Notes: generated from the sequence alone by a model not told the origin. Positions 9,008-39,664 are shown, counted from the first letter of the stretch. The stretch: DNA of 64,000 bases from an uncultured archaeon (GCA_902385655.1 CABMGO010000006.1:10329-74328), one strand, 5' to 3'. Made by a program: numbers and translations.

Positions 9008-9026
9008 TAAATTGGTTTGATAGTAT

Positions 9027-9107
9027 GCTCACATGGCACAATGGTACTGCAATGGTCTCGAACACCATGCCCTCACGGGCTTCCCGGTCCGATTCCGGGT
9101 GTGAGCG
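9027..9107 (+). tRNA. tRNA-Ser (anticodon CGA)
   Basis: Acceptor GCTCACA/TGTGAGC, anticodon stem ATGGT/ACCAT with loop CTCGAAC, long variable arm GCCC-TCAC-GGGC, T arm CCCGG-TCCGATT-CCGGG, discriminator G. Confidence 0.85.
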
Positions 9108-9296
9108 TATTTGTTATCAGAATCGAACTTCGATTCCGAGTAAAAAGGCTTTCCATTTTAATTTAAATATAGAAAAGAGCTCTTTGCGAGTAGGGTCTGG
9201 GCGTTTTTTCTGGCTTCGCTAACCTTCTTTACTTCGAAGAGCAGGAAAAACGGAGTTTCTAAATAATTTTATAAACTCTCTTTTTCTTTTCTAATT

Positions 9297-16704: not shown

Positions 16705-17097
16705 ATGGATCCGCTACCTGAGTATATTTGTCCGATTAGAAAACTCAAACTTTCTTTAAATCATTCTGTTGGTGAAAGATGCTATTTAGGTTCAGCTGGA
16801 AATATTTGCAATGCTTCTGGAAAACTTTGCGATATTCTTGAAGCACATGAACTTGCTCAAAGCTCAGATCATTCTCGCCTAATGGAAGTAGGGATAGAAT
16901 CTGATCCTTCTTCAGGCAATCCGGTCCCGTACGTTCGACCTGTAAGATCTTCACAAAGCCAACCAAAGTGCACAACTTCTCCACATATAACAACTTCTCC
17001 ACATATAACAACTTCTCCGCATATAGATTCCACATCGCCAGGTTATAACCCTTATAAAAAAGGAGGAGATAATCCCGATCCAAGAAAAAGGTATTAA
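16705..17097 (+). CDS. Cys-rich repeat protein (4-Cys module plus TTSPHI x3 tandem repeat)
   Basis: YICP-x13-C-x9-C-x5-C...ELAQS module; SQSQPKCTT; 18-nt tandem repeat in frame. Confidence 0.5.
   Translation: MDPLPEYICPIRKLKLSLNHSVGERCYLGSAGNICNASGKLCDILEAHELAQSSDHSRLMEVGIESDPSSGNPVPYVRPVRSSQSQPKCTTSPHITTSPHITTSPHIDSTSPGYNPYKKGGDNPDPRKRY
16972..17025 (+). repeat. 18-nt tandem repeat x3 (ACAACTTCTCCACATATA), in frame
   Basis: Units 16972-16989, 16990-17007, 17008-17025 (one A to G change in unit 3); encodes TTSPHI x3. Confidence 0.9.
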
Positions 17098-17098
17098 G

Positions 17099-17473
17099 AT
17101 GAGAGACAAAAGAAACCCCTATGACTTAAATGATTATAGGCCAATGCAACTTCGTCCAAATCTCTATGGCTTATCAAGTTCTACACAATCCTCTTCACCA
17201 AGCCAACCTAAGTGCAAACTAAAAGAGGAACAACCAAAAACATATTTTTGCCCATATACTGGTTCTTCTGTTTCAGGAGTTGCAGCCAGACATTGCAATT
17301 ATTCTAACTTAGATGATTTTACTTGCAGTCATACTGGTGATGCTTGCGTAGCTAAGGGGGGACTTGAAGAATTTGCACAAAGTCAAGCTAAGTGCACAAC
17401 TCCCTTAATTTTAGCAAGAAGCCAAGGTAGAAAAATTTATGAAACTCCGCGAGGCACTGATTGGCCTTGTTAG
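17099..17473 (+). CDS. Cys-rich repeat protein, paralog of 16705..17097
   Basis: YFCP-x13-C-x9-C-x5-C...EFAQSQAKCTT aligns with upstream ORF; start 1 nt after its stop. Confidence 0.5.
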   Translation: MRDKRNPYDLNDYRPMQLRPNLYGLSSSTQSSSPSQPKCKLKEEQPKTYFCPYTGSSVSGVAARHCNYSNLDDFTCSHTGDACVAKGGLEEFAQSQAKCTTPLILARSQGRKIYETPRGTDWPC

Positions 17474-17586
17474 TTAAAAAGTCTTCTAAAACCGCAAAAT
17501 TTATATACTTTATTCCAATAAGGTTATTAAATCGTTTCGATAAGGGAACCCTTACAGGAAGAAAATACCCTTAGTATACAAATAAA

Positions 17587-18054
17587 ATGGTGAAAAAAGA
17601 GAGAAAAGCACAGCTTAGTAAGAAAGATGTTAACAAAGATAACCTAAGTGCACAAAAGAAGTTCCTTTATCATGGCTCCAATAAAGAGATCAAATTATTA
17701 ATTCCAAAACAACCTTCAGATCCAAAAAAAGAAAATTCCCTTAAAGCCGTTTATGCAACAGACAGGAAAGATTATGCCTTAGCCATGGGTCTAACTAACC
17801 AAAAAGGCTCAACTAGTTTTATAACTTTTAATCCTGTTAAACTCCATTTTGTTAGGGGCAAGCCCAAAATGAAATTTATTTACTTGCATTATCTTTCTCC
17901 AAAAAATTTCAAAAAAAACTCAGAAAACCAATATCTTTCTTTTAAACCTGTAGAGTCCATATTAATTGAAAAATACTTTCCTTATGAACTTAGGCACCTT
18001 TGGACAAAGTCTAACAAAAAAGAATTAAATAAATTCCTTAAAAATAAAAAATGA
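17587..18054 (+). CDS. hypothetical protein with possible H-Y-E ADP-ribosyltransferase-like motifs
   Basis: FLYHGS, KAVYATD, ENQYLSF spaced like the PARP/ART H-Y-E triad; stop overlaps recombinase ATG (ATGA). Confidence 0.25.
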   Translation: MVKKERKAQLSKKDVNKDNLSAQKKFLYHGSNKEIKLLIPKQPSDPKKENSLKAVYATDRKDYALAMGLTNQKGSTSFITFNPVKLHFVRGKPKMKFIYLHYLSPKNFKKNSENQYLSFKPVESILIEKYFPYELRHLWTKSNKKELNKFLKNKK

Positions 18055-18836
18055 TCCATCAGTCTACAACCAAAATTCCTAAAGTAGCAATTTATTCAAG
18101 AGTTTCTACTGAAGAGCAGGCAAGAGAAGGTTTGAGCGTGGATGCTCAGATTGAAAAGTGTGAGGCGTACTGTAAAGCCAGAGGTTGGGAAATTTATCGA
18201 GTTTACAAAGATGCAGGTTTTTCAGCAGGCAGTTTGGACAGGCCTTCCATGGAGTTAATGCTTAGAGATGCAAATGAGTCAAAGTTCAATATAATTCTTG
18301 TTTATAAAATCGATCGTTTTTCAAGAAAGTTAAGAGATTTAATTTTAGTCTTAGAGAGCCTAAAAGAAAAAGACATTAATTTTACTTCAGTCACAGAACA
18401 AATCGATACTACTTCTGCTATGGGTGAAGCCTTCTTTCAAATTATCGGAGTTTTCGCACAACTAGAAAGAGGAATGGTGAAAGAGAGAGTTGAACTGGCA
18501 TTTGATAAAAAAATTGGTATGGGGGAATCTCTTTCTCGGGCCCCTCTTGGTTATGTTTATGAAAACAAAAAATTAGTTCCAGACCCTCAAAATTCTGAAA
18601 AATTAAAAGAGCTTTTTGAAATGGCAGAAATGGGAATAAGTTACAAAGTTATCTGCGAAAAATTTAACATACAACCCTCAACATTTTACTCAATAATCAA
18701 AAATCCTGTTTATACTGGAAAAGTGAAATACAAGGGAGAGCTTTACAAAGGATCGCACAAACCTCTCATTTCTGAAGAAGTTTTCAATAAATTAAATTCT
18801 CTCGAAACTAGAAATGGATCAACAAGCTCGGAATAA
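18051..18836 (+). CDS. serine recombinase (resolvase catalytic domain plus recombinase domain)
   Basis: AIYSRVSTEEQ catalytic Ser region, DRFSR, then SRAPLGY...YTGKV recombinase-domain pattern. Confidence 0.85.
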   Translation: MIHQSTTKIPKVAIYSRVSTEEQAREGLSVDAQIEKCEAYCKARGWEIYRVYKDAGFSAGSLDRPSMELMLRDANESKFNIILVYKIDRFSRKLRDLILVLESLKEKDINFTSVTEQIDTTSAMGEAFFQIIGVFAQLERGMVKERVELAFDKKIGMGESLSRAPLGYVYENKKLVPDPQNSEKLKELFEMAEMGISYKVICEKFNIQPSTFYSIIKNPVYTGKVKYKGELYKGSHKPLISEEVFNKLNSLETRNGSTSSE

Positions 18837-19419
18837 AATTTTAGAAAGAGACAAGTTCTGTTGTCAAAAGTGCGGTTTTGCAGAAGAATCAGAACTAGAA
18901 ACTCATCATATTACTCCTCAAGTTTTAGGTGGAGAAGAAAAAGAAGAAAATTTAATCACTCTCTGTTCGATTTGTCATCATTATGCTCCAGATTCTGCAA
19001 AGGAATTCAAAATATATCTTTCTGAAAAACTAGACTGGAAAATTCTAGAAACCTTTAGGAGGTCAAATCGTTCAATTTCCAAAAAAACAAGACAAGGTAT
19101 GGAAAGAAATATCTCTGAAGGAAAAGTAATTTCCCGAGCACCTTTGGGATACAAAATCATAAACAAGGAACTAGTCATTGATCCAGAAAAATCTGAGCAG
19201 TTGAAATCCATTTTCAAAGAATTCTCAGAAACTCAAATTAGTCTTACGCAACTTGGAAAAAAACATGGTTTTACTACTTCAGGCATAAAAAAACTGCTAA
19301 TGAACACCTCCTACCTCGGAAAGGTTAAATTTGCAGATCATGAAAACGACGGGACTCATCCAGCAATTATTGATCAAGAACTTTTTGATAAAGCGCAAAA
19401 TAGGTTTCTAAACATTTGA
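18814..19419 (+). CDS. HNH endonuclease fused to a serine-recombinase-type DNA-binding (recombinase) domain
   Basis: CQKCGF...HHITP...GG...NLITLCSICHH (HNH), then ISRAPLGY...NTSYLGKVKF; overlaps upstream recombinase gene by 23 nt. Confidence 0.7.
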   Translation: MDQQARNKILERDKFCCQKCGFAEESELETHHITPQVLGGEEKEENLITLCSICHHYAPDSAKEFKIYLSEKLDWKILETFRRSNRSISKKTRQGMERNISEGKVISRAPLGYKIINKELVIDPEKSEQLKSIFKEFSETQISLTQLGKKHGFTTSGIKKLLMNTSYLGKVKFADHENDGTHPAIIDQELFDKAQNRFLNI

Positions 19420-21030
19420 TTATTTTTTAACTACTAATTTTCTAAATTGCTGATATTTTGTTTCTGGAAATTGATTTATTTCTAAAGAGTTCACTAATGC
19501 ATGTGGTGCTTCTTGTGTTGAAGGCACCCATCCTGACTGCGCACCACATTCTCCTCTAAATACTCCATATTGATTGCTTGTCTGAACTATGTTCCGAATT
19601 ATCTGATATGGCGTTCCAACAATATATGCTCCCCTTACTTGCTCAACTTTTCCATTTCTATACAATCTAAAAATCTTTGAAGGATATGTCTCGAAATGGC
19701 TTCTTTCTGGAATAGTTAGACCTCCTGCAGATCCTTCAAAAATTAATCCATAAGGTTCATTCTGCTCTGCACAAATTCTTAGCAAATTTTCCTTAAGCTG
19801 ATCCAGAGGTACTTCATTAGAAGAACGTACAATTAAATTACTCATTCTGGCTACAGGATCTTTTGATTGCTCAGATCTTGCATGACCATTTGAATTTGTT
19901 CTGAAAAATCCTGCACTTTCTCTAGAGTGCAAGTAATCTCTTAAAACTCCTCTTTCGATCAGTCTAACTCTTTGAGCTCTCGCTCCCTCATCATCATAGG
20001 GATAGTATCCGTCAAGTCTCTTTATAGTCGGATCATCATCTACACTAATAAATTCTGGAGCAACTTTTCTTCCAAGCTTACCTAAAAATAAACTCACCTT
20101 GTCTTCTTTTTGTCCATTCTGCCCTGTCTCCGTTTTCATGCTAGTCCCTTCTAGAGCATGGCCTATCATTTCGTGCCATAAAACTCCATGATTTTCCGGG
20201 TCTAATATCGCAGGGTAACTCCCATTTTTTTGAAGTGGAGAAGCAATTATCTCCGCAAGTTCTTCTCTAAGTTCTTCTCCCAAATTGACTATTGCTCGAT
20301 AATGCTCAGGCCTAACCATTCCATCTGGAAAGAAATTCCTTCCATGTTGGATAACCCATCCATGAGCATCTATTGCTTCAACGGAAACTCCGACCATACT
20401 TCTTAGAGAATCATAATAAATTCTCGCACCCTCAGAGTTTACAATATGTCTCCCTTCTCTTCTAACTCTCATAGTAATATCTGCATCAACTAGGTTTTTT
20501 CCCTCTTGCCAAATTTCTGCGGATGCTGCTTTCAACATTTTTTCAACTTCTGCTAAATCTACACTTATTCTTTTTTCAGGCCCGGAGTATTTATCGCCGA
20601 CTTCCTTTGTAAAAATTCTATATTTTTCTCTTTGATTTTTACTTCCAACCGCCATCAAATCCCGCGTGCTTTGATCTTGAACACAATCCCAAAATGCAGA
20701 ATTAGACGCAAGCCAGATTTCATGCATAGAAGATTTTATATCCAAATCACAGGGCAATTCAAAAGGCCAACTTCCCATCCCTCCAGAGTCATAGCCTCCC
20801 ATTCTTACTTCAACTCTTCCTGGGCAAACATGACGAGGGTCATAGTCTCTTGTAACTAGTCCTCCATTTTCTATCCACAAAGAATAGCTCTCAATTTCCC
20901 TTGCTGCAAGTGAAGCGAAAAAAGGACGAAATGTTACAGTTCTCTTTCCTGAATTTCTAAAACTATGTTGTGCCTTTAAAACTTTTTCTAAACCTTCCTC
21001 AAGAAAATTAAATATTTTTCTGTTTGCCAC
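19420..21030 (-). CDS. TldD/PmbA-family metalloprotease-like protein
   Basis: 536 aa; HEMIGHALE (HExxxH), C-terminal GECG..GWVP motif typical of TldD; apparent GTG start. Confidence 0.7.
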   Translation of the reverse strand: MANRKIFNFLEEGLEKVLKAQHSFRNSGKRTVTFRPFFASLAAREIESYSLWIENGGLVTRDYDPRHVCPGRVEVRMGGYDSGGMGSWPFELPCDLDIKSSMHEIWLASNSAFWDCVQDQSTRDLMAVGSKNQREKYRIFTKEVGDKYSGPEKRISVDLAEVEKMLKAASAEIWQEGKNLVDADITMRVRREGRHIVNSEGARIYYDSLRSMVGVSVEAIDAHGWVIQHGRNFFPDGMVRPEHYRAIVNLGEELREELAEIIASPLQKNGSYPAILDPENHGVLWHEMIGHALEGTSMKTETGQNGQKEDKVSLFLGKLGRKVAPEFISVDDDPTIKRLDGYYPYDDEGARAQRVRLIERGVLRDYLHSRESAGFFRTNSNGHARSEQSKDPVARMSNLIVRSSNEVPLDQLKENLLRICAEQNEPYGLIFEGSAGGLTIPERSHFETYPSKIFRLYRNGKVEQVRGAYIVGTPYQIIRNIVQTSNQYGVFRGECGAQSGWVPSTQEAPHALVNSLEINQFPETKYQQFRKLVVKK

Positions 21031-21114
21031 AACAAATTCTATTTTTCTAGTTTAAAAAGCCTTTATCTTGTGCAAGATATATTTCGTAGACTACTATTTT
21101 ATTTTTCTTCGAGA

Positions 21115-22644
21115 TCAGAATTTTGCTTTCCATTTTCCATTAATCATAGGAAGAAGTTGAACAGTATCATTTTCATATAACACTCCATTAGCAGCCATAG
21201 AAGCACTCGAAGCTCCTTGCATGTAAGAAGTTTCTGGAGAAAGCATTGTTCCAACTCTGTAAATATCGCCCTTTATCTCTGGCGAGTGTGAATGGCCAAA
21301 TATTCCTTTACCAAACGATTCTTCTTGAGATGAAACTCCTCCTCCTCTTGCTCCATTCTTTCCAAGATGACCATGGGAAGCCAGTTGATATCCTCCCACA
21401 ACTAAGTTACTACTTAATCTCAAAAATTGTACATTCGAAGGTATCTGTCCAATGAGCTTTAATGCTTCTTCTAGATATCCATCTTGTCTCGGCATCCTAG
21501 AAGTGATCATTGCATTCATTTCAAAATTCCAAAGATCATCGGCACTCTGGGGACTATTCAAATACTTCGGAAGAAAATCATGGTGATTTGAGTGCACAAT
21601 ATAAATCTCTCTTCCTTTCATCGCTTTAGAAAATTCTTTTAAATATTTCATGTTAAGCTCTAATTCTTTTCTTAAGTCCAATTTCCCATCCCGGAACAGT
21701 CTAGCTCTTTCAATTCTGTTTGCTAATTCATGATGAGAAATACTATATCCTGAAAAGAAATCATGTAAAATTAATCTTTCGGGTTTGAAAAACTCTATTT
21801 GCTCTAATGTGGCTTCAAGTGCACGAGGATCATGTTCACCAATGTGGACATCACTTGCATCAAGAGCTTTTACTTTTACTCTTTCAGGTTTTCTGTCTCC
21901 ATTATATTTTAATCCCATATCAACAAATGAACCATCCATTCTTGCTCTAAGAGTTCTCATATTAAAGTAATTGCCGTCGATCGTTTCTACTAATACTGCG
22001 CCAAGCCTATGATCTTTAGCAGCTTGATCTCCCTTTGCGTTATACTGGTTATAATTCGGAAGAGTGACCATTCCAGTAGTCAGCAAATATCTTGGGAAAT
22101 CTGCTTGATAAACTGCAACAGGTCTAAATCTTTGTTTTGAATGTGGGAAAACTAATGTCGATCCATACTTTGCAGGAAGTTTTGTTTTTCCTGTCGTAGG
22201 ATCCACATTTTGTGGCGGAACAAGAATATCACTTAACTGGATATTATCGTTAAAACTAAAATATCCTTTTCTCCAAGCAGGATAGAGCTCAGGTAAATGC
22301 TCGACGCTTTCATGAAGAACATCCTCTGCTTGACATTTTCCCGCAGTCGGGCAAATTAACATTTCAGAACCGACATCTCTTTCTTTCATCATTCTTCTCA
22401 ATCCATCGTAAAGATTCTGATGTAATGGGGCAGACCCTTCTCCCAAGAATGGAACATAAATTGTCCTTGCTACCCACTTCCCGTCAATTTTTTCTCTTAC
22501 TTCTTTAGTCATATATGTTGACTGCGCAGCACTAACAACCCAGAGCATCGGAGTAGTTGGATGAGGGTTAGAATCTCGAACAGTTAGTCTTTCTCTCTGT
22601 TCCTGATTTATTCTAGAAACCTCCTCTCTTTTTGTCATGCTCAA
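21115..22644 (-). CDS. large calcineurin-type metallophosphoesterase with about 260-aa unknown N-terminal domain
   Basis: SDVHIGEHD, LHDFFSG, SNHHDF, SHGH, GHSHSP in canonical order in the C-terminal half. Confidence 0.6.
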   Translation of the reverse strand: MSMTKREEVSRINQEQRERLTVRDSNPHPTTPMLWVVSAAQSTYMTKEVREKIDGKWVARTIYVPFLGEGSAPLHQNLYDGLRRMMKERDVGSEMLICPTAGKCQAEDVLHESVEHLPELYPAWRKGYFSFNDNIQLSDILVPPQNVDPTTGKTKLPAKYGSTLVFPHSKQRFRPVAVYQADFPRYLLTTGMVTLPNYNQYNAKGDQAAKDHRLGAVLVETIDGNYFNMRTLRARMDGSFVDMGLKYNGDRKPERVKVKALDASDVHIGEHDPRALEATLEQIEFFKPERLILHDFFSGYSISHHELANRIERARLFRDGKLDLRKELELNMKYLKEFSKAMKGREIYIVHSNHHDFLPKYLNSPQSADDLWNFEMNAMITSRMPRQDGYLEEALKLIGQIPSNVQFLRLSSNLVVGGYQLASHGHLGKNGARGGGVSSQEESFGKGIFGHSHSPEIKGDIYRVGTMLSPETSYMQGASSASMAANGVLYENDTVQLLPMINGKWKAKF

Positions 22645-22736
22645 AAAAATTCATTTCTCTTTAAAAGTCTTTATGTCTTTCAGAATATATTATTTTTAAG
22701 GGCCATATTTAAAAACCAACTATTCCAAAATTCTCT

Positions 22737-23201: not shown

Positions 23202-23738
23202 ATGGTTTGTGAGAAATGTGGTTATCAAGATGTAAAAGAGATTGAAAAATTCAATTTTCCCCTTTGCCAATTTTGTAATTTTTTTGCCCCAGAAGAAGAA
23301 GATAATTTTACTTTTTATTTAAACGAAAAAACAGATTGGAAACTTTTAGATACTTTTAGAAAATACGGTCAGACTTTTGGAAGCAAACAAAAAGCCGGAA
23401 TGAACGAAAAAGCAAAACAAGGCAAACTTGTTACTCGAATTGCTCTCGGTTACTCTCTGCAAAATGGAGAACTTATTCCGAATGAAATGTCTTCAAAAGT
23501 ACATTCGATATTTAGAACATTCAATGAAAAAAACTTTTCTTTAAATAGTATGGCTAAACACTATGGTCTTTCTGTAAATGGATTAAAAAAAGTTTTAAAA
23601 AACAGAACTTATTTGGGAGAGATAAAATTTGATGGAAGAATACATAAAGGAAATCATAAACCTTTAATCAGTCCAGAAATTTTTTACGCAGTCCAAAGAA
23701 AATTACAAGAAATAAGTAGAAAGAAAAAACAGGCTTAA
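23202..23738 (+). CDS. zinc-ribbon (degenerate HNH) plus recombinase-domain protein, paralog of 18814..19419
   Basis: CEKCGY...CQFCNFFAP aligns with the HNH of the paralog but lacks HH/N; FYLNEKTDWKLLDTFRK and IALGY...NRTYLGEIKF conserved. Confidence 0.6.
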   Translation: MVCEKCGYQDVKEIEKFNFPLCQFCNFFAPEEEDNFTFYLNEKTDWKLLDTFRKYGQTFGSKQKAGMNEKAKQGKLVTRIALGYSLQNGELIPNEMSSKVHSIFRTFNEKNFSLNSMAKHYGLSVNGLKKVLKNRTYLGEIKFDGRIHKGNHKPLISPEIFYAVQRKLQEISRKKKQA

Positions 23739-24619
23739 ATTCTTGTTTTCATAAATCGTTTTATTCTGGAAGATAAAAAGTATTCCCCTGGATTTGTATT
23801 CGCTTCCCTTATGATGTCTTCTCTAACTGCATGGAAAAGTAAGTCCGAGCTTATGTCCGTTTCCTCTAGTCCCTGCTCGAGAAGTTTGTAATATGTCTTT
23901 CTTATTCTCGGCGTTGTACTATACCGATCATTTGGCGATAATTCTCTTTCATGACTAATTTCAGAATACGGCTTAAGAAGCCATTTCCTTGCGAGAATGT
24001 CTCCAGCGGATTGTACTCTATAATCTTTGAAGACTATTCCTTCCATATCTCCTTTTGCAAATTTTCCAGGCAATCCTTCAACAAGGAGTCTTTCTATGTC
24101 TCTTTTATTTGGCTTAGCAACTCTTAATTCAGGTAGAGCAGGAACATCTTCAATCCCTCTTTCTCTTAGAAGTTGTACTGCTTCTTGATAATCCAAAAAT
24201 CTTTCTAAGTTGCCTTCAGCATTCAATAAACCGACATCAATTAAAAATAATCTGTTTTCGAATTCTGGAGAGTATTCTATTCGGCTGTGTGGCTCTTCAG
24301 GATCAGATTCTTCTTCTCTAGGTGCAACCCACTCTCCGAAAAGTACGACGTCTTGAGGTAGGCCATAGAGACTGTAATTTTTCATCGCCCATCTTTTGAA
24401 TGTAGGTATCCAGGCCTTGTAACCTATAGACTGATCCCAGCGTCTATTCATAACAAAGTTACTTCTGTTCCCTAAAAGAATTCTTCCTTTAACATTCCTT
24501 ATTTGACAATTGCTTCCGTCGATTTTTTCAAATAAACTTATTTCTCCTGGAAAAACTTCTAGCCCTCCTAGATAGGGTATTTTTGGATACTTCACAAAGC
24601 TAGGTAGTTGATCTGTCAT
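23735..24619 (-). CDS. ATP-dependent RNA ligase family protein (Rnl2/PF09414-like nucleotidyltransferase)
   Basis: KYPKIPYL, motif I EKIDGSN, motif III LFGEW, motif IV FLIDV, motif V EGIVFK. Confidence 0.7.
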   Translation of the reverse strand: MTDQLPSFVKYPKIPYLGGLEVFPGEISLFEKIDGSNCQIRNVKGRILLGNRSNFVMNRRWDQSIGYKAWIPTFKRWAMKNYSLYGLPQDVVLFGEWVAPREEESDPEEPHSRIEYSPEFENRLFLIDVGLLNAEGNLERFLDYQEAVQLLRERGIEDVPALPELRVAKPNKRDIERLLVEGLPGKFAKGDMEGIVFKDYRVQSAGDILARKWLLKPYSEISHERELSPNDRYSTTPRIRKTYYKLLEQGLEETDISSDLLFHAVREDIIREANTNPGEYFLSSRIKRFMKTRI

Positions 24620-25245
24620 ATTCTCGTGTCTATGAAATTTATTTGAGGGTAATTTGAAGTTTGGGAAATGAGTTGAGCTCCTCTTGCAACGTGATTATAA
24701 TCAGAAGTCACTAGAATAATTTTTCTAGGTACCTCTTCATTTCTTAAAGGCGTTTTTGCAAATGTAGCTCCATGCCTTAGTAATTCACAATCTCCTGGAG
24801 AGATTAATTCATATTCGTCTGCCTGATTCAATAAGATTTCTAGATGGTTTTTTACAAGTAACCACGATTCAAGACTATTTGCTTCTCTTTCATCTTCTTG
24901 TAATCGTGTGTAAAATTCATCAAACCTTCGGGCATATAAAAAAGCTCTTCCGAGAGCTGATGGAGAAAGTTCTCTTTCATATCGGTTTAATCTTACTGTT
25001 GCATGCTTTAAGACCTCCTTATAGTTCTCAGGAGTTATAACTGGATCAGAAAGTTCTTCCAATCTCCTTAGATAAATGTCAATACTGTTCTGTCGATTAT
25101 CTGGACTAATACCTTCTTCACTTTTCCTTTGAATATCAATTAATGCTCCAGTATCTACTAATATAATCGGTCTTTGAGCTCCTGAAAGATCAGATAATTC
25201 TCTCTCAATTTTTCTAAAGTCTTTCACTTCCCTATGTTTTTTCAT
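24616..25245 (-). CDS. PIN-domain nuclease-like protein
   Basis: ILVDTGALID, VITPENYKEV, SPGDCELL, ILVTSDYNHV give the four acidic PIN positions in order; 4-nt overlap with ligase gene. Confidence 0.55.
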   Translation of the reverse strand: MKKHREVKDFRKIERELSDLSGAQRPIILVDTGALIDIQRKSEEGISPDNRQNSIDIYLRRLEELSDPVITPENYKEVLKHATVRLNRYERELSPSALGRAFLYARRFDEFYTRLQEDEREANSLESWLLVKNHLEILLNQADEYELISPGDCELLRHGATFAKTPLRNEEVPRKIILVTSDYNHVARGAQLISQTSNYPQINFIDTRI

Positions 25246-25347
25246 GATGTTCTATGTCCTAAAATCTATATAAACCTTTCCTTTTTGTTATCTCTTGCAA
25301 ATGACAACAAAACAAAGATTTTTAAATGTATAAAGCAACTGTTCAGT

Positions 25348-25893
25348 ATGGCTACTTTAAATTTTGATGGATCTAAACTGTATCGAGCTAAAGGAACTCC
25401 CAAGCTTCCGCCAAAGGTAGCACTCGCACTCTTAAACCAGTCTGCTAGAACTTCCTCAAGAAGTTTATATGATCCTTTTTGTGGAGGAGGGACAATTCTT
25501 CTTTGTGCTAGAAAGTATTTCCCAAATCATTATTTAACTATTTCTGGAGCAGACATAGATCCTCTTGCGGTAGAAGCTACAAGACTAAATTTATTGGACT
25601 CCATACCTGAAACAGAATTATTACAAAATATTGTCCCAAGAGACGCAACAAAAGACACTTTGCCTACCGGAACAGATTTAATTGTTACTGATCCACCGTT
25701 CGGAAGAAGATGTCCAGTCTCCGAAGGATTTTTAGAAAAGGCTTTTTTAAATTTCAGAAATCAAAACGTCCAAGACATTTTCTTCTGCTATGATGGAAAA
25801 ACCCCTCTTCAAAATGAATTAAAAAGAATTTATACTGTAAAAGAATTTAAACGAGATTGGGGCAGAGCATTTTATCATGCACAAGCAAAGTGA
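25348..25893 (+). CDS. SAM-dependent RNA methyltransferase (UPF0020/Trm14-RlmL-like catalytic domain, no THUMP)
   Basis: LYDPFCGGGTILL (motif I) and IVTDPPFG (motif IV); ATG 25348 chosen because track start 25234 overlaps the divergent PIN gene. Confidence 0.65.
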   Translation: MATLNFDGSKLYRAKGTPKLPPKVALALLNQSARTSSRSLYDPFCGGGTILLCARKYFPNHYLTISGADIDPLAVEATRLNLLDSIPETELLQNIVPRDATKDTLPTGTDLIVTDPPFGRRCPVSEGFLEKAFLNFRNQNVQDIFFCYDGKTPLQNELKRIYTVKEFKRDWGRAFYHAQAK

Positions 25894-25990: not shown

Positions 25991-26407
25991 TTAACGATAA
26001 GAGGTTTGTCTTTTTGCTCTTGCTTTAGAGTCTCCAGGCTTGTAAGCTTCTTTTCTTCTTGTGTCAGCAACAAGCATACTTCTATCATAAGAAATGAACG
26101 CTTGTCTAACTTTATCGTTCTTAGTATATTCAACAATAACTCTTGCAATAGCTAGTCTAGCAGCTTCGATTTGTGAAGATGTTCCGCCACTTTTTACATT
26201 TACATCAATATCCATATCTAATTTTCCTAAAACTTGTTCAGCAATGATAAGCGATTCTTTCAATTCTAACTGTTGTAGCATTGGATAAGCTTCAATAATT
26301 TTATCATTAATCATAACTTTTCCATTTCCTGGTTTTGCTGTTGCTTTAGCTATAGCTGTTTTTCTTTTACCAGATACAACCTTATTTGGAACAATATTCA
26401 TTGCCAT
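25991..26407 (-). CDS. rps9: 30S ribosomal protein S9 (uS9)
   Basis: GGTSSQIEAARLAIARV...ARAKRQTSYR. Confidence 0.9.
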   Translation of the reverse strand: MAMNIVPNKVVSGKRKTAIAKATAKPGNGKVMINDKIIEAYPMLQQLELKESLIIAEQVLGKLDMDIDVNVKSGGTSSQIEAARLAIARVIVEYTKNDKVRQAFISYDRSMLVADTRRKEAYKPGDSKARAKRQTSYR

Positions 26408-26814
26408 TAGATATATTTAGCAACCTCCGCAAGTGTGATGTACTTAAGGGGTTTATGAGATTTTATTTTTTCAACTTTCTTTAACTCTTCTGCTGTCAAT
26501 GGTCCGTTCCCTACAAAGCATCTTAGTCTATCGAAAGCTTCTCTTCCTTTTGTTCTGTCCCATGGCAACATTCCTCTTATCATTCTTTTCATTAATCTGT
26601 CAGCATATCTAGAAACTTTTGGACCTTTCAAACCTATACCTCCAAGTTTTCTCCATTCGGAAACTGATCCAATAACTTCTTGAGGATTTCCAGTAATTAT
26701 TGATTTTTCAGCATTGATTATAGCAACTTCTTTTCCTTTCAAAAGTTCTTTACAGGCCATGCTCCCGACTCTTCCTAGAGCAATTCCGTTAGCATCAAAA
26801 TATAATTTTACCAT
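26407..26814 (-). CDS. rpl13: 50S ribosomal protein L13 (uL13)
   Basis: Typical uL13 N-terminus DANG..LGR..S..AK.LL.G; 1-nt overlap with rps9. Confidence 0.9.
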   Translation of the reverse strand: MVKLYFDANGIALGRVGSMACKELLKGKEVAIINAEKSIITGNPQEVIGSVSEWRKLGGIGLKGPKVSRYADRLMKRMIRGMLPWDRTKGREAFDRLRCFVGNGPLTAEELKKVEKIKSHKPLKYITLAEVAKYI

Positions 26815-26815
26815 T

Positions 26816-27184
26816 TTATAATATTCTTACTCCTTTGAAATCTTTATTTGTTTTTAATTCTTCTTGTACTGAAATAAATTCTCCCTTTACAGCTTTTATT
26901 TTTTCAACTGCATTTTCAGAAGCACTCCAAGAAACTATTTTTACTTTCTTTGTTAAATCGCCAGAAGCCAAAACTTTTCCAGGAACAAAAACTTTTTCAC
27001 CATCTTTAACCATTTTGTCAATTTGAGTTAAATTAACAGAAGGCCATTTTTTTCTTGGCATTGCCAATAATTTCGCAACTTCGGTATTTGTATTTTTCAA
27101 TTCCAATATGGCATTAACTAAGTACGGATTTGCCTTTGTTTCTGCTCTTCTTGCAATGTGTGTTTTGCTTATTGTTCTTTCCAT
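26816..27184 (-). CDS. rpl18e: 50S ribosomal protein L18e
   Basis: 122 aa, position rpoD-L18e-L13-S9 and sequence pattern. Confidence 0.8.
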   Translation of the reverse strand: MERTISKTHIARRAETKANPYLVNAILELKNTNTEVAKLLAMPRKKWPSVNLTQIDKMVKDGEKVFVPGKVLASGDLTKKVKIVSWSASENAVEKIKAVKGEFISVQEELKTNKDFKGVRIL

Positions 27185-27302
27185 TTTTAATAATCGCTGC
27201 TAGAAATCAATTAATGATTTCCTACTAAATCGCGTTAGCTTGCAGGATAAAACTTTGTGTTGAGGAGGGTTTATAAAGATTGTTATTGGGTTTCATTTAT
27301 TC

Positions 27303-27385
27303 GGGGAGATGCCGGAGTGGTCAAACGGGCGACGTTAAGGCCGTCGTAGCTTACGCTTACAGGGGTTCGAGTCCTCTTCTCCCCA
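27303..27385 (+). tRNA. tRNA-Leu with anticodon AAG (A34; unusual)
   Basis: Acceptor GGGGAGA/TCTCCCC, D stem CCG/CGG, anticodon stem CGACG/CGTCG with loop TTAAGGC, long variable arm, T arm AGGGG-TTCGAGT-CCTCT, discriminator A. Confidence 0.8.
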
Positions 27386-27622
27386 CTAAAACATATTGAG
27401 CGAAGTGAAATATGTTAAGAGGATTCTAATGCTATTTCGGAGAATCAGGGGTTAAAATTTTTGCTCTTCAATATATTTTGCATCAGCAATAAAAGTAAAA
27501 AATCAGAAGAGTGAAAATTTTACAGAGTCCGAGCAAAACACTTTTGATTTTCTTTTTGCATCAGCAAGAAGTGTTTAGTTTTTCAAAAGTATTTTGCAAG
27601 TATCTTCTCCCGAAAATCCTAT

Positions 27623-27769
27623 TTAATCTTTCTCAAGAATTCTAATCAGTCCGTCTAATTTTCCATTAAGAACTTTTAATCCTCTATTAAAATATCTTAA
27701 ATTCATTTTTGTTTGAGCGCATATTTTTCCGACGTAATGAGAAACATAATCACCTATATTGGATTCCAT
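27623..27769 (-). CDS. small ORF (48 aa) 4 nt downstream of rpoD; coding status uncertain
   Basis: MESNIGDYVSHYVGKICAQTKMNLRYFNRGLKVLNGKLDGLIRILEKD; TAA-CAAG-ATG junction with rpoD. Confidence 0.25.
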   Translation of the reverse strand: MESNIGDYVSHYVGKICAQTKMNLRYFNRGLKVLNGKLDGLIRILEKD

Positions 27770-27773
27770 CTTG

Positions 27774-28481
27774 TTACTTCAATTCTTTAGAAAGTTCATC
27801 TAAATTCTTGTTCAAAGCCTTTACAGCATCTTTGAAAATTTCTTCAGCATCAATTTGGCCCCAGGATTCAATTGTGTAAATTAAATCTTCAGTTGGAGTA
27901 ACTTTAACGCCTTTGAATTCTTCTAATTCTTCAGTATCAATATCTAAAGCAGCTTCATTCTTAACTTTCAACTTTCCACCCTCAACTGCAAAAACTTCAG
28001 GATACATTTCAGCAAGTTCAGTTGATTTTTCAGCATCCTTTCCTACTTCAACTTTATTAAAATGTCTATAACTTAAAAGTCCTGGAGAGAACTTTGCATG
28101 TTCAATTCCTTTTCCTTGCTTTGCCTTTGCAACAAGTTCTATTTCTTGTTGTTTGTCAAGAATAACAATTGGGATATTATCATAAACAACTTCTTTTCCT
28201 AAATCTTTTGCTAAAACTTCTCTTCTTTGTCCCTCAGCTTTTACAGAAAGTTTCATTTCAACAACGTCTCCTTCCTTTACTTTTTGATTTTTTAAAGGAA
28301 CTAAACCTACTCTATGTGCAATAATCTCATCATATAATGCAGAGTCATTTTTATAAATGTCTACTTCATCGACAGCTAAAATTGGAATTTCATTAGCACT
28401 TCTTCTAATTGCATTCGCCAAACTAACATTCATGTCTGTCTTGAACACAACCTTATTGTTTTTTTCTGATATTTTTTCCAT
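27774..28481 (-). CDS. rpoD: DNA-directed RNA polymerase subunit D (Rpo3)
   Basis: ANAIRR...PILAVD...DE.IAHR.GL.PL; ATG 28481 (track start 28496 is TTG). Confidence 0.85.
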   Translation of the reverse strand: MEKISEKNNKVVFKTDMNVSLANAIRRSANEIPILAVDEVDIYKNDSALYDEIIAHRVGLVPLKNQKVKEGDVVEMKLSVKAEGQRREVLAKDLGKEVVYDNIPIVILDKQQEIELVAKAKQGKGIEHAKFSPGLLSYRHFNKVEVGKDAEKSTELAEMYPEVFAVEGGKLKVKNEAALDIDTEELEEFKGVKVTPTEDLIYTIESWGQIDAEEIFKDAVKALNKNLDELSKELK

Positions 28482-28513
28482 TTTATTATTTATCAAAGTT
28501 TATTTTTAAAGCT

Positions 28514-28894
28514 TTATACACGTCTTCCTCTTCTTCCGCCGCCTTTCTTTGGTCCGCCTCTTGCAACCTTAGTAGTGTCAGCAATACTTATGATTTTGAA
28601 TCCTTCTTTCTGAAGAGTCTTGACAAGTGAATGTGCTCCTGGCCCAGGTCCTGTTTCACCAGTTTGTCCTCGGATTCTAACGTAAAGAGAAGAGATCTCA
28701 TAGTCTCTTGCAATTTCTTTTAATCTCTTTGCAATGAACATGGCAATTGTTGGGTTTGCTTTCAATCTGTCTTGCTTTGTAATTATTCCACCAGAAACTT
28801 TCGCAATAGTATTTCCAGCCAAATCCGTTAATTGCGCGATAGTATTATTGAAGCTACTGTAAATATGGATTATTGCTGTTTTTCCTTCTGCCAT
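28514..28894 (-). CDS. rps11: 30S ribosomal protein S11 (uS11)
   Basis: IIHIYSSFNNTIAQLTD..G...VSGG. Confidence 0.9.
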   Translation of the reverse strand: MAEGKTAIIHIYSSFNNTIAQLTDLAGNTIAKVSGGIITKQDRLKANPTIAMFIAKRLKEIARDYEISSLYVRIRGQTGETGPGPGAHSLVKTLQKEGFKIISIADTTKVARGGPKKGGGRRGRRV

Positions 28895-28895
28895 T

Positions 28896-29387
28896 TTATT
28901 GTTCTACTACTGCCTCCTTTTTCTCTTTAATCTTTCCAGCGATTAATGAAATCTTGCTTTCTAAATCTTTAGTTACAAAGAACGAGGGAACATTAACTGT
29001 TCTTCCATTTACAGAGATGCTATTGTGCGAAATTATTTGTCTAGCTTGTAATGGAGTTTTTGCTAAACCTTTCTTAAAAACAATTGTTTGCAATCTTCTA
29101 TCAAGCCAGTTTTCAGTCTTTAATGCTAAGACATCTGCAATATTTTCAATGTTCAATCCCATTCCATTTAATTTATTGAAAAATTCCTTTTTCTCTTCAG
29201 GAGACTTTGGGATTAATGTTTTAGCTCTATTTCTTAATGTAGAAATCTTTGCAGAAGCTTTCCAAATTTCTCTTTTACTTTTTAATCCATATTTCTGAAC
29301 AATTTCTTTTTCAGCTGCAATTCTTGCTGCATCAAATGCCTTTCTAGGTCTTGAATACAAATTTGGTTTTCTTTTTATGTCGCCCAT
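28896..29387 (-). CDS. rps4: 30S ribosomal protein S4 (uS4)
   Basis: 163 aa, S4 domain RLQTIVFKKGLAKT..QARQ.I.H. Confidence 0.9.
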   Translation of the reverse strand: MGDIKRKPNLYSRPRKAFDAARIAAEKEIVQKYGLKSKREIWKASAKISTLRNRAKTLIPKSPEEKKEFFNKLNGMGLNIENIADVLALKTENWLDRRLQTIVFKKGLAKTPLQARQIISHNSISVNGRTVNVPSFFVTKDLESKISLIAGKIKEKKEAVVEQ

Positions 29388-29388
29388 C

Positions 29389-29937
29389 TTATTTCTTCTT
29401 CTCCGCTACCATTGGTTTAGCTGTAGGTTTAGACTGGGTCTTAGCACTCATTCCACTCTTCTTTTTATTAACTCTGAAGTGAGATTTTGTTCTTTGTCCT
29501 CTAACTGGTTGTCCTAATGTGTGTCTCACTCCTTTGTAAGACTTTATCTTCTTCATTCTCTTTATATCAAATTCAACTTGTAAATCTAAATCTGTTCCGT
29601 AAATATGTCTATCTGTTCCCAAATCTCTATCCTTTCTTCTATTTAATAGATACAATGGCATTCCTTGAGGATTTTTAATGTAATCTTCAATTTTGTGAAT
29701 TTCTTGTTCATTCAAATCTTGGATTTTCTTATTTTTGTCTAATTTTAAATTTTTACAAACTGCATTTGAAAATGTCCAAGAAACCCCATTGATTTGGCAC
29801 AATCCTCTATACGTTTTCATGTCTCCTCGAATATCTTTAGATAAAATTCTAACTAACTTAACTAACTCTTCTGGCTTTGGTTGACCAGGCTTTCCCTTCG
29901 GTGGTTGTTTTTTTTCTTCTATTTTTTGTTCGCTCAT
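29389..29937 (-). CDS. rps13: 30S ribosomal protein S13 (uS13)
   Basis: LVRILSKDIRGD...GLCQINGV...GQRTKS. Confidence 0.9.
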   Translation of the reverse strand: MSEQKIEEKKQPPKGKPGQPKPEELVKLVRILSKDIRGDMKTYRGLCQINGVSWTFSNAVCKNLKLDKNKKIQDLNEQEIHKIEDYIKNPQGMPLYLLNRRKDRDLGTDRHIYGTDLDLQVEFDIKRMKKIKSYKGVRHTLGQPVRGQRTKSHFRVNKKKSGMSAKTQSKPTAKPMVAEKKK

Positions 29938-39572: not shown

Positions 39573-39664
39573 GCACTGGTAGTATAATGGTAGTATAGTT
39601 GGTTTCCAAGTATTAAATTGTACGAAACGACCAATTGGCTCGGGTCCGATTCCCGACCGGTGCA
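39573..39664 (+). tRNA. tRNA-Gly (anticodon TCC) with a 21-nt intron
   Basis: Acceptor GCACTGG/CCGGTGC, D arm GTAT-AATGGTA-GTAT, anticodon stem GTTGG/CCAAT, loop TTTCCAA followed by 21 extra nt (39610-39630), T arm TCGGG-TCCGATT-CCCGA. Confidence 0.7.

Follow-up and report, generated by a model that had tools for sequence, protein, structure and literature searches.

A recurrent PIN-like nuclease and RNA ligase gene pair of DPANN archaea, a candidate cut-and-seal module for stable RNA

A stretch of 64,000 nucleotides (nt) from an uncultured archaeon (GCA_902385655.1, CABMGO010000006.1:10329-74328), hereafter called the window, carries on its minus strand the two overlapping genes considered here. 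The upstream gene (24616-25245) encodes a PIN-like protein of 209 amino acids (aa), a proposed metal-dependent endonuclease, and the downstream gene (23735-24619) encodes a 294-aa protein with the features of an ATP-dependent RNA ligase. Their open reading frames (ORFs) share 4 nt (24616-24619, minus strand), in which the TGA of the 209-aa ORF overlaps the ATG of the 294-aa ORF as ATGA, an arrangement that would imply translational coupling. A preliminary description of the window had grouped the pair with a divergent RNA methyltransferase gene into a candidate module for cutting, resealing and marking RNA; the coordinates, the 4-nt overlap and all the ligase and methylase motifs that it quoted were recovered. 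The methyltransferase gene (UPF0020-type N-methyltransferase, 181 aa, 25348-25893, plus strand) is separated from the PIN-like gene by a 102-nt spacer if translation begins at 25348; a longer ORF from 25234 exists, and the internal ATG at 25348 is the plausible start. Two candidate TATA-like boxes are arranged back to back in this spacer: TTTATATA on the minus strand (25267-25274), 22-29 nt 5' of the ATG of the PIN-like gene, and TTTTAAAT on the plus strand (25320-25327), about 22-29 nt 5' of the ATG of the methyltransferase gene. Judged by the general archaeal TATA consensus and spacing, boxes at such distances suggest leaderless or near-leaderless transcripts. The markers of the window, namely the two subunits of PolD, Orc1/Cdc6 and a helicase of the Lhr type, are archaeal, and the archaeal ribosomal-protein operon S13-S4-S11-RpoD-L18e-L13-S9 occupies about 25991-29937 on the minus strand. 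GC content is close to 34 % throughout, with no break in composition at the PIN-like/ligase locus.

Its sequence marks the 294-aa protein as an RNA ligase, ATP-dependent and Rnl2-like in architecture, in agreement with the Rnl2-type assignment made in the preliminary description. It matches PF09414 (RNA_ligase) with 57.3 bits against a cut-off of 27, as well as PHROGs family phrog_548 ('RNA ligase') over its full length (residues 8-291). The motifs EKIDGSN (31-37), LFGEW (93-97), FLIDV (124-128) and EGIVFK (193-198) are in place, and in an alignment of 24 sequences the nucleotidyltransferase motifs I, III, IIIa, IV and V are intact across the family, whose members range from 236 to 339 aa. Residues E31, K32, D34, G35 and N37 of motif I, E96 of motif III, and E193 and G194 of motif IV are invariant; F124 (IIIa) and K212 (V) are conserved in at least 90 % of the sequences, and D268 is invariant or nearly so. 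The Asn of motif I (K-x-x-G-x-N) is a feature common to Rnl2 and Rnl3 ligases (PMC4797309). With the catalytic Lys at residue 32, the adenylyltransferase domain begins at the N-terminus, and behind it comes a C-terminal helical domain like that of Rnl2. Alignment of the family with T4 Rnl2 by hhalign (reference sequence verified against 2hvq) reached 95.5 % probability (E 1.4e-8) and paired family-profile positions 7-253 of 275, that is, window residues 8-281, with residues 2-308 of 334 in T4 Rnl2. This alignment is collinear through the C-domain, including the Y-x-T-x-x-R and D-I-x-x-E segments.

The catalytic domain has other nearest neighbours. Among the PDB sequences, the ligase profile matched best the Rnl3 adenylyltransferase domains 8uce and Pab1020 (2vug), at E about 1e-11, followed by Aquifex Rnl3 (3qwu, 8e-9), the Rnl5 enzyme NgrRnl (1.5e-8) and T4 Rnl2 (5e-4). 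Membership of Rnl3 failed nevertheless, since TIGR01209 gave 12.8 bits against a cut-off of 136.9. An Rnl3 protomer consists of four domains, namely N-terminal, adenylyltransferase, dimerisation and C-terminal (PMC4797309), and a protein of 294 aa with its catalytic Lys already at K32 is too short to accommodate the first and the third of these. The collinear alignment with T4 Rnl2 and the proximity of the catalytic domain to Rnl3 therefore lead us to describe the protein as an RNA ligase that has the architecture of Rnl2 and, in its catalytic domain, is closest to Rnl3. In locus L005 (733-1266), the ligase ORF continues into sequence (RDWGYAKEYVEAMWLMLQQ) that seems to resemble GDP-mannose 4,6-dehydratase, and the run-on suggests that the contig is chimeric or the fusion an artefact.

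Searches with the 209-aa protein gave no match in Pfam, NCBIfam, PHROGs or the PDB sequences and, in PADLOC, one marginal and unrelated match to a CARF model (E 0.0056, 13.9 bits). A word-index homology search returned zero relatives for this protein and a single relative for the ligase. Exhaustive HMMER searching of 1.84 billion representatives recovered, at E <= 1e-3, a PIN-like family of 23 proteins with the window's included, nearly all of 195-250 aa. Residue conservation was assessed on 38 sequences, comprising these representatives and the loci found later: D31, E77, H81, D152, D182 and H185 are invariant, and T32, I36, D37, E92, S149 and R208 are conserved in at least 90 %. Residues D31, E77, D152 and D182 make up a collinear D-E-D-D set of the kind that characterizes the PIN superfamily. 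Weak, sub-threshold matches to PIN-clan models occur in 10 of the 38 relatives (PIN_4 in four, PIN_12 in three, PIN in two, DUF4411 in one), the best of them being PIN_4 in one divergent member, at 21.7 bits against a cut-off of 21.9; no competing family recurs among the weak matches of the 38 members. PF08745 (PIN_5) matched none of them at E <= 0.1.

A single-sequence AlphaFold run on the 209-aa protein gave a pLDDT (predicted local distance difference test) of only 38; a confident model needed an alignment of 22 sequences, with which the pLDDT rose to 93.7 and the predicted TM-score was 0.90. The model predicts a beta-alpha topology with strands at 27-30, 67-69, 176-180 and 202-206. In it, D31 follows strand 27-30, E77 is part of helix 72-82, D152 lies where helix 150-164 begins and D182 comes behind strand 176-180. 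Between the E77 helix and the helix of the S-x-x-D motif, the model places a helical hairpin (95-113 and 117-142), which resembles, in architecture only, the two-helix insertion forming the protruding spike-helix domain of HARP. The best Foldseek neighbours in the PDB were HARP (7e8o, 7e8k, 7e8j), which is the minimal RNase P made of protein only, and the PIN domain of SMG6/EST1A (2dok, 2hwx), with weak and non-significant scores (E 0.02-0.25, TM 0.27-0.44). Nothing was returned for the model from the Foldseek viral structure library, and the family profile gave nothing meaningful against the PDB sequences.

Profile-profile alignments by hhalign to HARP and SMG6 (reference sequences verified against 7f3e and 2hww, respectively) were not significant, at 0.6-6 % probability; the segments that they aligned are the catalytic motifs only, mutually consistent and collinear. 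With HARP, D31-T32 pairs with D7-T8, E77 with E51, and S149 and D152 with S139 and D142; with SMG6, D152 pairs with D1353 and D182 with D1392. The active-site set reported for HARP comprises D7, D138, S139, E141, D142 and D160 (PMC12217051). Equivalents of D7, S139, D142 and D160 are present as D31, S149, D152 and D182, whereas D138 and E141 lack a conserved counterpart in the PIN-like family, which has E77, H81 and H185 instead, so that the full HARP set was not found. On the evidence from the family, we regard the 209-aa protein as probably a new and highly divergent PIN-like nuclease. The family is read as carrying a HARP-like helical insertion in its model without being a member of PIN_5. 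Because the alignments to HARP and SMG6 were non-significant, membership of PIN_5 or PIN_4 is not claimed. The PIN-like label of the preliminary description is thus retained at the level of the family, on the invariant tetrad, the sub-threshold PIN-clan matches and the Foldseek neighbours at E >= 0.02; the window protein taken alone has no profile or PDB match that is significant. The gene pair defines a PIN-like family that is missed by current Pfam and NCBIfam models.

The pairing of PIN-like and ligase genes, described at first from the window alone, recurs in a survey of gene neighbourhoods: nuclease then ligase is the order in 27 of the 28 loci examined, always head to tail. Both genes are clearly real, given that they have homologues and that their pairing recurs. 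In all seven PIN-seeded contigs, a ligase recognized by PF09414 or by the motif EK(I/L)DGxN lies immediately downstream. The closest ligase homologue (49 % identity), the only close one found, sits on a 1-kb contig (L001) in which the fragment upstream is the C-terminus of PIN-like family member P0008 and the junction is as in the window. A ligase-seeded scan of the GTDB species genomes yielded 19 loci, 18 of which have a PIN-like gene directly upstream on the same strand, recognized by a match to the hidden Markov model (HMM) of the PIN-like family in 16, as a fragment cut by the contig end in one and as a divergent PIN_4-like gene in one. The sole GTDB locus without it (L024) belongs to a 'Thermotogota' bin and has a ligase of 24 % identity. 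In the 21 full-length loci, the distance from stop to start is invariably between -26 and +18 nt, most commonly -4 or +1. Pairwise divergence of the PIN-like proteins correlates with that of the ligases (Mantel r = 0.65, a value reached in 0 of 5000 permutations). By label, the 19 GTDB loci come from Woesearchaeota (10), Pacearchaeota (3), Nanoarchaeota (3), an 'archaeon' (1), 'Omnitrophota' (1) and 'Thermotogota' (1); the 'Candidatus Omnitrophota' contig (L019) is probably mis-binned, because it carries archaeal gatD and gatE along with the pair. The pair is confined almost entirely to the genome-reduced DPANN archaea, namely Woesearchaeota, Pacearchaeota and Nanoarchaeota.

Two genomic contexts recur, and both are clusters of translation and tRNA genes, not mobile elements. 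In the clade of the window, which also contains L002 and L015, the pair lies directly downstream of S9 in the ribosomal-protein operon; in L002, it begins 161 nt after S9 and shares that gene's strand. The larger and more divergent clade has the order gatD, PIN-like gene, ligase gene, gatE and then aspS, all transcribed in one direction and separated by tens of nt (for instance L012:3264-9691). The genes gatD and gatE each encode one of the two subunits of archaeal Glu-tRNA(Gln) amidotransferase. Across the loci, gatE follows the ligase gene in 13, gatD lies upstream in nine and aspS downstream in eight, with gatB or proS often nearby; the carriers flanked by gatD or gatE are L006, L011-L014, L016-L019, L021-L023 and L026. 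The chromosomal position of the pair is stable across protein identities of 25-40 %.

The preliminary description knew of no precedent for a partnership between a PIN nuclease and an RNA ligase, but one exists. HARP belongs to PIN_5 (PF08745), whose co-occurrence with an RNA ligase was noted in the 2017 classification of PIN domains (PMC5499597), and its NCBI name is 'RNA ligase partner protein'. Seshadri and Gopalan (2025, mBio) reported that HARP and Rnl3 co-occur in 89 % of cases and are co-localized in a third of the archaeal ones, usually in divergent orientation and with only 10 tandem cases; why HARP travels with Rnl3 was raised there as an open question (PMC12153264). The two systems share a PIN-type nuclease, here a putative one, of about 200 aa with an inserted two-helix domain and an ATP-dependent RNA ligase. 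HARP tops the Foldseek results for the 209-aa model and Rnl3 tops the PDB results for the adenylyltransferase domain of the ligase, and the S-x-x-D, D-T and final D motifs of HARP align with those of the PIN-like family. A tRNA-related setting is also shared, as PIN_5 co-occurs with a tRNA methyltransferase and a tRNA synthetase according to the 2017 classification (PMC5499597). There are also differences. The PIN-like family has no match to PF08745 or NCBIfam and has H81, H185, D37, E92 and R208 as family-specific residues; its ligase lacks the N-terminal and dimerisation domains of Rnl3 and has a C-domain that aligns with T4 Rnl2; the genes are always in tandem, overlapping or abutting, where HARP and Rnl3 are usually divergent. 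The hosts differ as well: HARP-Rnl3 is found in archaea and a few bacteria (Halobacteriota, Thermococcales and Aquificales), DPANN not being listed among the HARP carriers in the survey of PMC12153264, whereas the present pair belongs to DPANN. On paper, then, the pair resembles HARP-Rnl3 and yet, by its sequences, it fails membership of both PIN_5 and Rnl3.

Beyond HARP-Rnl3, the ligase shares with T4 Rnl2 and kinetoplastid REL1 an N-terminal adenylyltransferase domain, the motif I signature K-x-x-G-x-N and motifs III to V, together with a helical domain at the C-terminus. The resemblance to the editosome extends to the cut-and-join logic, in which a dedicated endonuclease cuts the RNA and a ligase of Rnl2 type closes it again. 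The ligases of the window's family are shorter, however (236-339 aa), and have Asp rather than His in motif I; the adenylyltransferase domain of the window ligase scores better against Rnl3 and Rnl5 than against T4 Rnl2 in HMM searches, and the partner nuclease is PIN-like here and RNase III-like in the editosome.

We consider it moderately probable that the pair is a chromosomal cut-and-seal module for stable RNA, a counterpart of HARP-Rnl3 rather than a mobile defence island of three or four genes. The PIN-like nuclease, depending on a metal, would cleave a structured and stable RNA, for which a tRNA or some other precursor related to translation is the most likely candidate, and would leave a 5'-phosphate and a 3'-OH. 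Ends of this kind, 3'-OH and 5'-PO4, are what classic ATP-dependent RNA ligases join, and the ligase could seal the products directly without any end healing; the logic of cutting and resealing put forward in the preliminary description is chemically coherent. For PIN nucleases that depend on a metal, HARP among them, a 5'-phosphate is the known product (PMC12217051), and the C-domain of Rnl2 serves in the binding of nicked duplexes (PMC4797309). Sealing would either restore the RNA or join or circularize a processed product, so that the outcome might be maturation, circularization, repair or a reversible inactivation, and the module would belong to chromosomal housekeeping or accessory RNA processing. 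Owing to their translational coupling, the two proteins probably act as a complex, and the tight coupling, the co-divergence and the translation-gene context argue that both activities act together on translation-related RNA.

A more specific and decidedly tentative version, which we hold as possible rather than probable, sees in the pair the DPANN counterpart, perhaps the ancient homologue, of HARP-Rnl3, with a protein-only, RNase P-like endonuclease and a ligase carrying out a cut-and-join maturation. The nuclease would be physically coupled to the ligase for a step on tRNA or another stable RNA with 5'-phosphate/3'-OH chemistry, such as leader removal with joining or circularization, or the reversible nicking of tRNA. 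If so, the step would be independent of the EndA/RtcB pathway and might represent the main 5'-processing activity in carriers devoid of RNase P RNA. It would also constitute a second, independent nuclease-ligase partnership and make the HARP-Rnl3 linkage a general coupled mechanism instead of a coincidence. The partnership is unrelated in sequence to HARP-Rnl3, or at most extremely diverged from it, and is much more tightly coupled, as its genes always overlap or abut and co-diverge. The role of HARP in archaea that also possess RNase P RNA is an open question on which the pair bears, and with about 209 and 294 aa, the two proteins are compact enough to be experimentally tractable for coupled RNA cleavage and ligation. 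Full-text literature searches yielded no description of the pair.

Several observations weigh against a cut-and-seal module. The PIN assignment is not statistically secure: neither the window protein nor any of the 38 relatives has a significant match to a PIN-clan profile, and the two family alignments tried against the HARP alignment reached probabilities of 0.6 % and 6.4 %. The genes evolve fast, for where S9 is 60 % identical, the PIN-like protein and the ligase are at 31-39 % (36-39 % for the ligase alone), and such fast evolution in a rare and patchy family is also typical of conflict or accessory genes. Adjacency to gatD and gatE or to ribosomal-protein genes may be synteny without shared function, and no tRNA gene recurs next to the pair among the loci. 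In the window itself, the pair has its own candidate promoter and lies beside a recombinase-bearing insertion.

Foremost among the rivals is a system of toxin and antidote, or of defence, in which a PIN ribotoxin would cut tRNA or rRNA and the ligase would reseal the 5'-phosphate/3'-OH ends, as a device for addiction or abortive infection. We judge this unlikely, even though the pair is fast-evolving relative to its neighbours, rare and patchy, adjoins in the window a block with recombinase, HNH and phage A1-type genes, and has parallels elsewhere. For PIN_3.COG1569, a conflict system with an ATP-grasp ligase and HNH was proposed in which the RNA ligase neutralizes nucleases (Burroughs and Aravind 2016, as cited in PMC5499597), the window ligase being a covalent nucleotidyltransferase and not an ATP-grasp enzyme. 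The same type of reading was raised for HARP-Rnl3 and judged unlikely in Thermococcus kodakarensis, where a ligase knockout had no growth defect (PMC12153264). With VapBC, the pair has in common a PIN nuclease encoded with a protein that could neutralize its damage; a VapBC toxin of about 130 aa follows a small DNA-binding antitoxin, however, whereas a nuclease of 195-250 aa comes first here and no small antitoxin is encoded with it, and the mobile or variable context of VapBC contrasts with the stable ribosomal-protein or gatD/gatE clusters of the pair. Neither protein has relatives on IMG/VR viral contigs, PADLOC gave no match for the ligase and only the marginal CARF-model match for its partner, and the recombinase block is missing from syntenic relatives of the window. 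The function in a mobile island suggested by the preliminary description is at odds with this absence from viral contigs and with a position next to S9 or between gatD and gatE that persists across deep divergence. The three- or four-gene scheme of that description, in which PIN would do the cutting, a phosphoesterase the healing and the ligase the sealing, before the methyltransferase marked the junction in the manner of Pnkp-Hen1, appears highly improbable. Its appeal comes from the divergent arrangement of the methylase gene and the pair across the 102-nt spacer, seen in this one genome, and from the precedent of Pnkp1-Rnl-Hen1 (PMC4411300), with which the window shares an RNA ligase near RNA-end enzymes and a methyltransferase nearby. 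The Pnkp-Hen1 system, however, repairs breaks that bear a 2',3'-cyclic phosphate together with a 5'-OH, not PIN-type ends, which need no healing, and the window locus has neither a kinase-phosphatase nor a Hen1-type 2'-O-methylase, so that membership of that system fails. The methylase gene, the gene for the proposed phosphoesterase (a 509-aa protein) and the TldD-like gene beside the latter occur in 0 of 27 related loci, and the pair occurs in 0 of 25 methylase-seeded loci. What stands of the earlier interpretation is the PIN-like/ligase pair; the trio or quartet and the mobile-defence framing do not.

Two further alternatives keep the pair and change what its first protein does. The 209-aa protein could be, rather than a nuclease, a regulatory or non-catalytic cofactor for the ligase, engaged in substrate delivery or activation as archease is for RtcB, with conserved acidic and His residues that bind a metal or a nucleotide for another purpose. 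The lack of a significant nuclease-family match, the weakness of the structural matches and the conserved or invariant H81, H185, D37, E92 and R208 outside the classical PIN set would suit such a role, as would the finding that four recombinant bacterial HARPs oligomerized and did not cleave pre-tRNA (PMC12153264). We nevertheless find it distinctly improbable, as the four invariant acidic residues are collinear with the catalytic positions of PIN domains in HARP and SMG6 and PIN-clan families alone recur among the weak matches. Still more doubtful is the processing of flaps or nicks on DNA or RNA-DNA hybrids, whereby a FEN-like PIN 5'-nuclease would trim a flap or an RNA primer and an Rnl2-like ligase would seal a nick with an RNA 3'-OH. 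The PIN-like superfamily does include FEN-type 5'-nucleases (PMC5499597), and Rnl2 and Rnl5 do seal nicked duplexes with an RNA 3'-OH strand (PMC4797309; PMC4408790); yet the weak matches and structural neighbours of the family are RNA-acting PIN proteins (PIN_4/SMG6 and HARP), not FEN or PIN_3, and the genomic context is one of translation and tRNA genes, not replication or repair.

The neighbours of the pair in the window are set apart from it by the comparison with related loci, whose scope was about 6 kb around the pair. The methyltransferase is judged to be outside the conserved module. It matches PF01170 (UPF0020) with 52.1 bits against a cut-off of 22.3, carries the motifs DPFCGGGT and DPPFG and has no THUMP domain, as the preliminary description had it. 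Its nearest solved relatives are the M subunits of type I restriction-modification systems and the tRNA m2,2G10 enzyme Trm-G10, and these relatives together with the DPPF motif of amino-group N-methylases indicate that it is not an analogue of Hen1. Searches by phmmer with the methylase, the 509-aa protein, the TldD-like protein and two small unknown proteins found no homologue in the 27 related loci, and the methylase gene is absent from the interval between S9 and the PIN-like gene in the syntenic L002 and L015. The methylase-seeded metagenome scan recovered only distant cores (at most 33 % identity) in its 25 loci, none with the pair, and the methylase was rejected as a partner of the module on these grounds. 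In six other loci (L006:453-863, L011:4596-4976, L014:542-919, L016:503-910, L017:2857-3258, L020:222-632), a gene for a DUF1003 membrane protein, transcribed from the strand opposite to the PIN-like gene, lies upstream of it, directly adjacent in four, in the place that the unrelated methyltransferase occupies in the window.

The 509-aa protein (21115-22644), which the preliminary description had taken for a metallophosphoesterase able to heal RNA ends, is by its sequence relationships a homologue of the phage T5 A1-type protein: it matches phrog_1745 ('DNA transfer protein', E 1e-74), with a weak metallo-phosphoesterase match besides, and 1129 phage records ('A1 protein', 'DNA transfer protein', metallophosphatase) at 25-28 % identity. 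A role in end healing was rejected, the protein being of phage A1 type and absent in relatives, and PIN-type ends needing no healing. Its gene and that of a divergent TldD/PmbA-like metallopeptidase (together 19420-22644, minus strand), neither of them found in syntenic relatives, are flanked by a serine recombinase/HNH-recombinase gene pair on one side and by a 153-aa ORF and the 23202-23738 gene on the other. Since this block is absent from the relatives, the mobile-looking material is an insertion beside the pair and not its vehicle. Around the block, a search for att-like repeats found just a weak 28-nt inverted repeat, 79 % complementary (18025-18052 and 22685-22712). A 266-aa calcineurin-like phosphoesterase (Metallophos) unrelated to the 509-aa protein is encoded after gatE in L012, L013 and L018.

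The gene at 23202-23738 (plus strand, 178 aa, PF07508 match), convergent with the ligase gene, encodes an N-terminal CxxC zinc ribbon and the DNA-binding 'Recombinase' domain of serine recombinases, without a catalytic resolvase domain. Genes of this kind (173-178 aa) follow the ligase gene in five loci, all in the window's clade, with orthologues at L002:9475-9993, L003:1918-2250, L009:1649-2170 and L015:7858-8406 that are 61-86 % identical, in genomes whose S9 reaches only 60 % and whose adjacent ligase only 36-39 %; they stand tail to tail with the ligase gene in all five, with one ORF between in L015. To judge from this conservation, the 178-aa protein does not look like the product of a mobile element but like a DNA-binding protein that is domesticated and under strong constraint. 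On the far side of the block (18051-19419, plus strand), two ORFs overlap in what is an unusual organization for a serine recombinase, split or mosaic. One, of 261 aa, has the catalytic Resolvase domain and a partial Recombinase domain; the other, of 201 aa, fuses an HNH endonuclease domain to Recombinase and is paralogous to the 178-aa protein (34 % identity).

Just to the left of the recombinase block, the region 16705-17660 contains repeats, among them an 18-nt unit present three times in tandem (16972-17025) and a 41-nt family of four copies, which lie inside small Cys-, Ser/Pro-rich ORFs encoding repeated 'TTSPHI' and 'SQ(S/A)(Q)(P/A)KC' peptides. A search of the window for RNase P RNA and other Rfam families returned 5S rRNA and tRNAs only, a result confined to this stretch of the genome. 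A 92-nt tRNA gene (39573-39664, plus strand) is reported by Rfam and not by ARAGORN, which suggests that it may contain an intron. Conversely, tRNA-Ser (9026-9108) and tRNA-Leu(aag) (27303-27386) are reported by ARAGORN and lie outside the Rfam gathering list; the latter is situated between L18e and RpoD in the ribosomal-protein operon and is conserved at L002:6473-6557.

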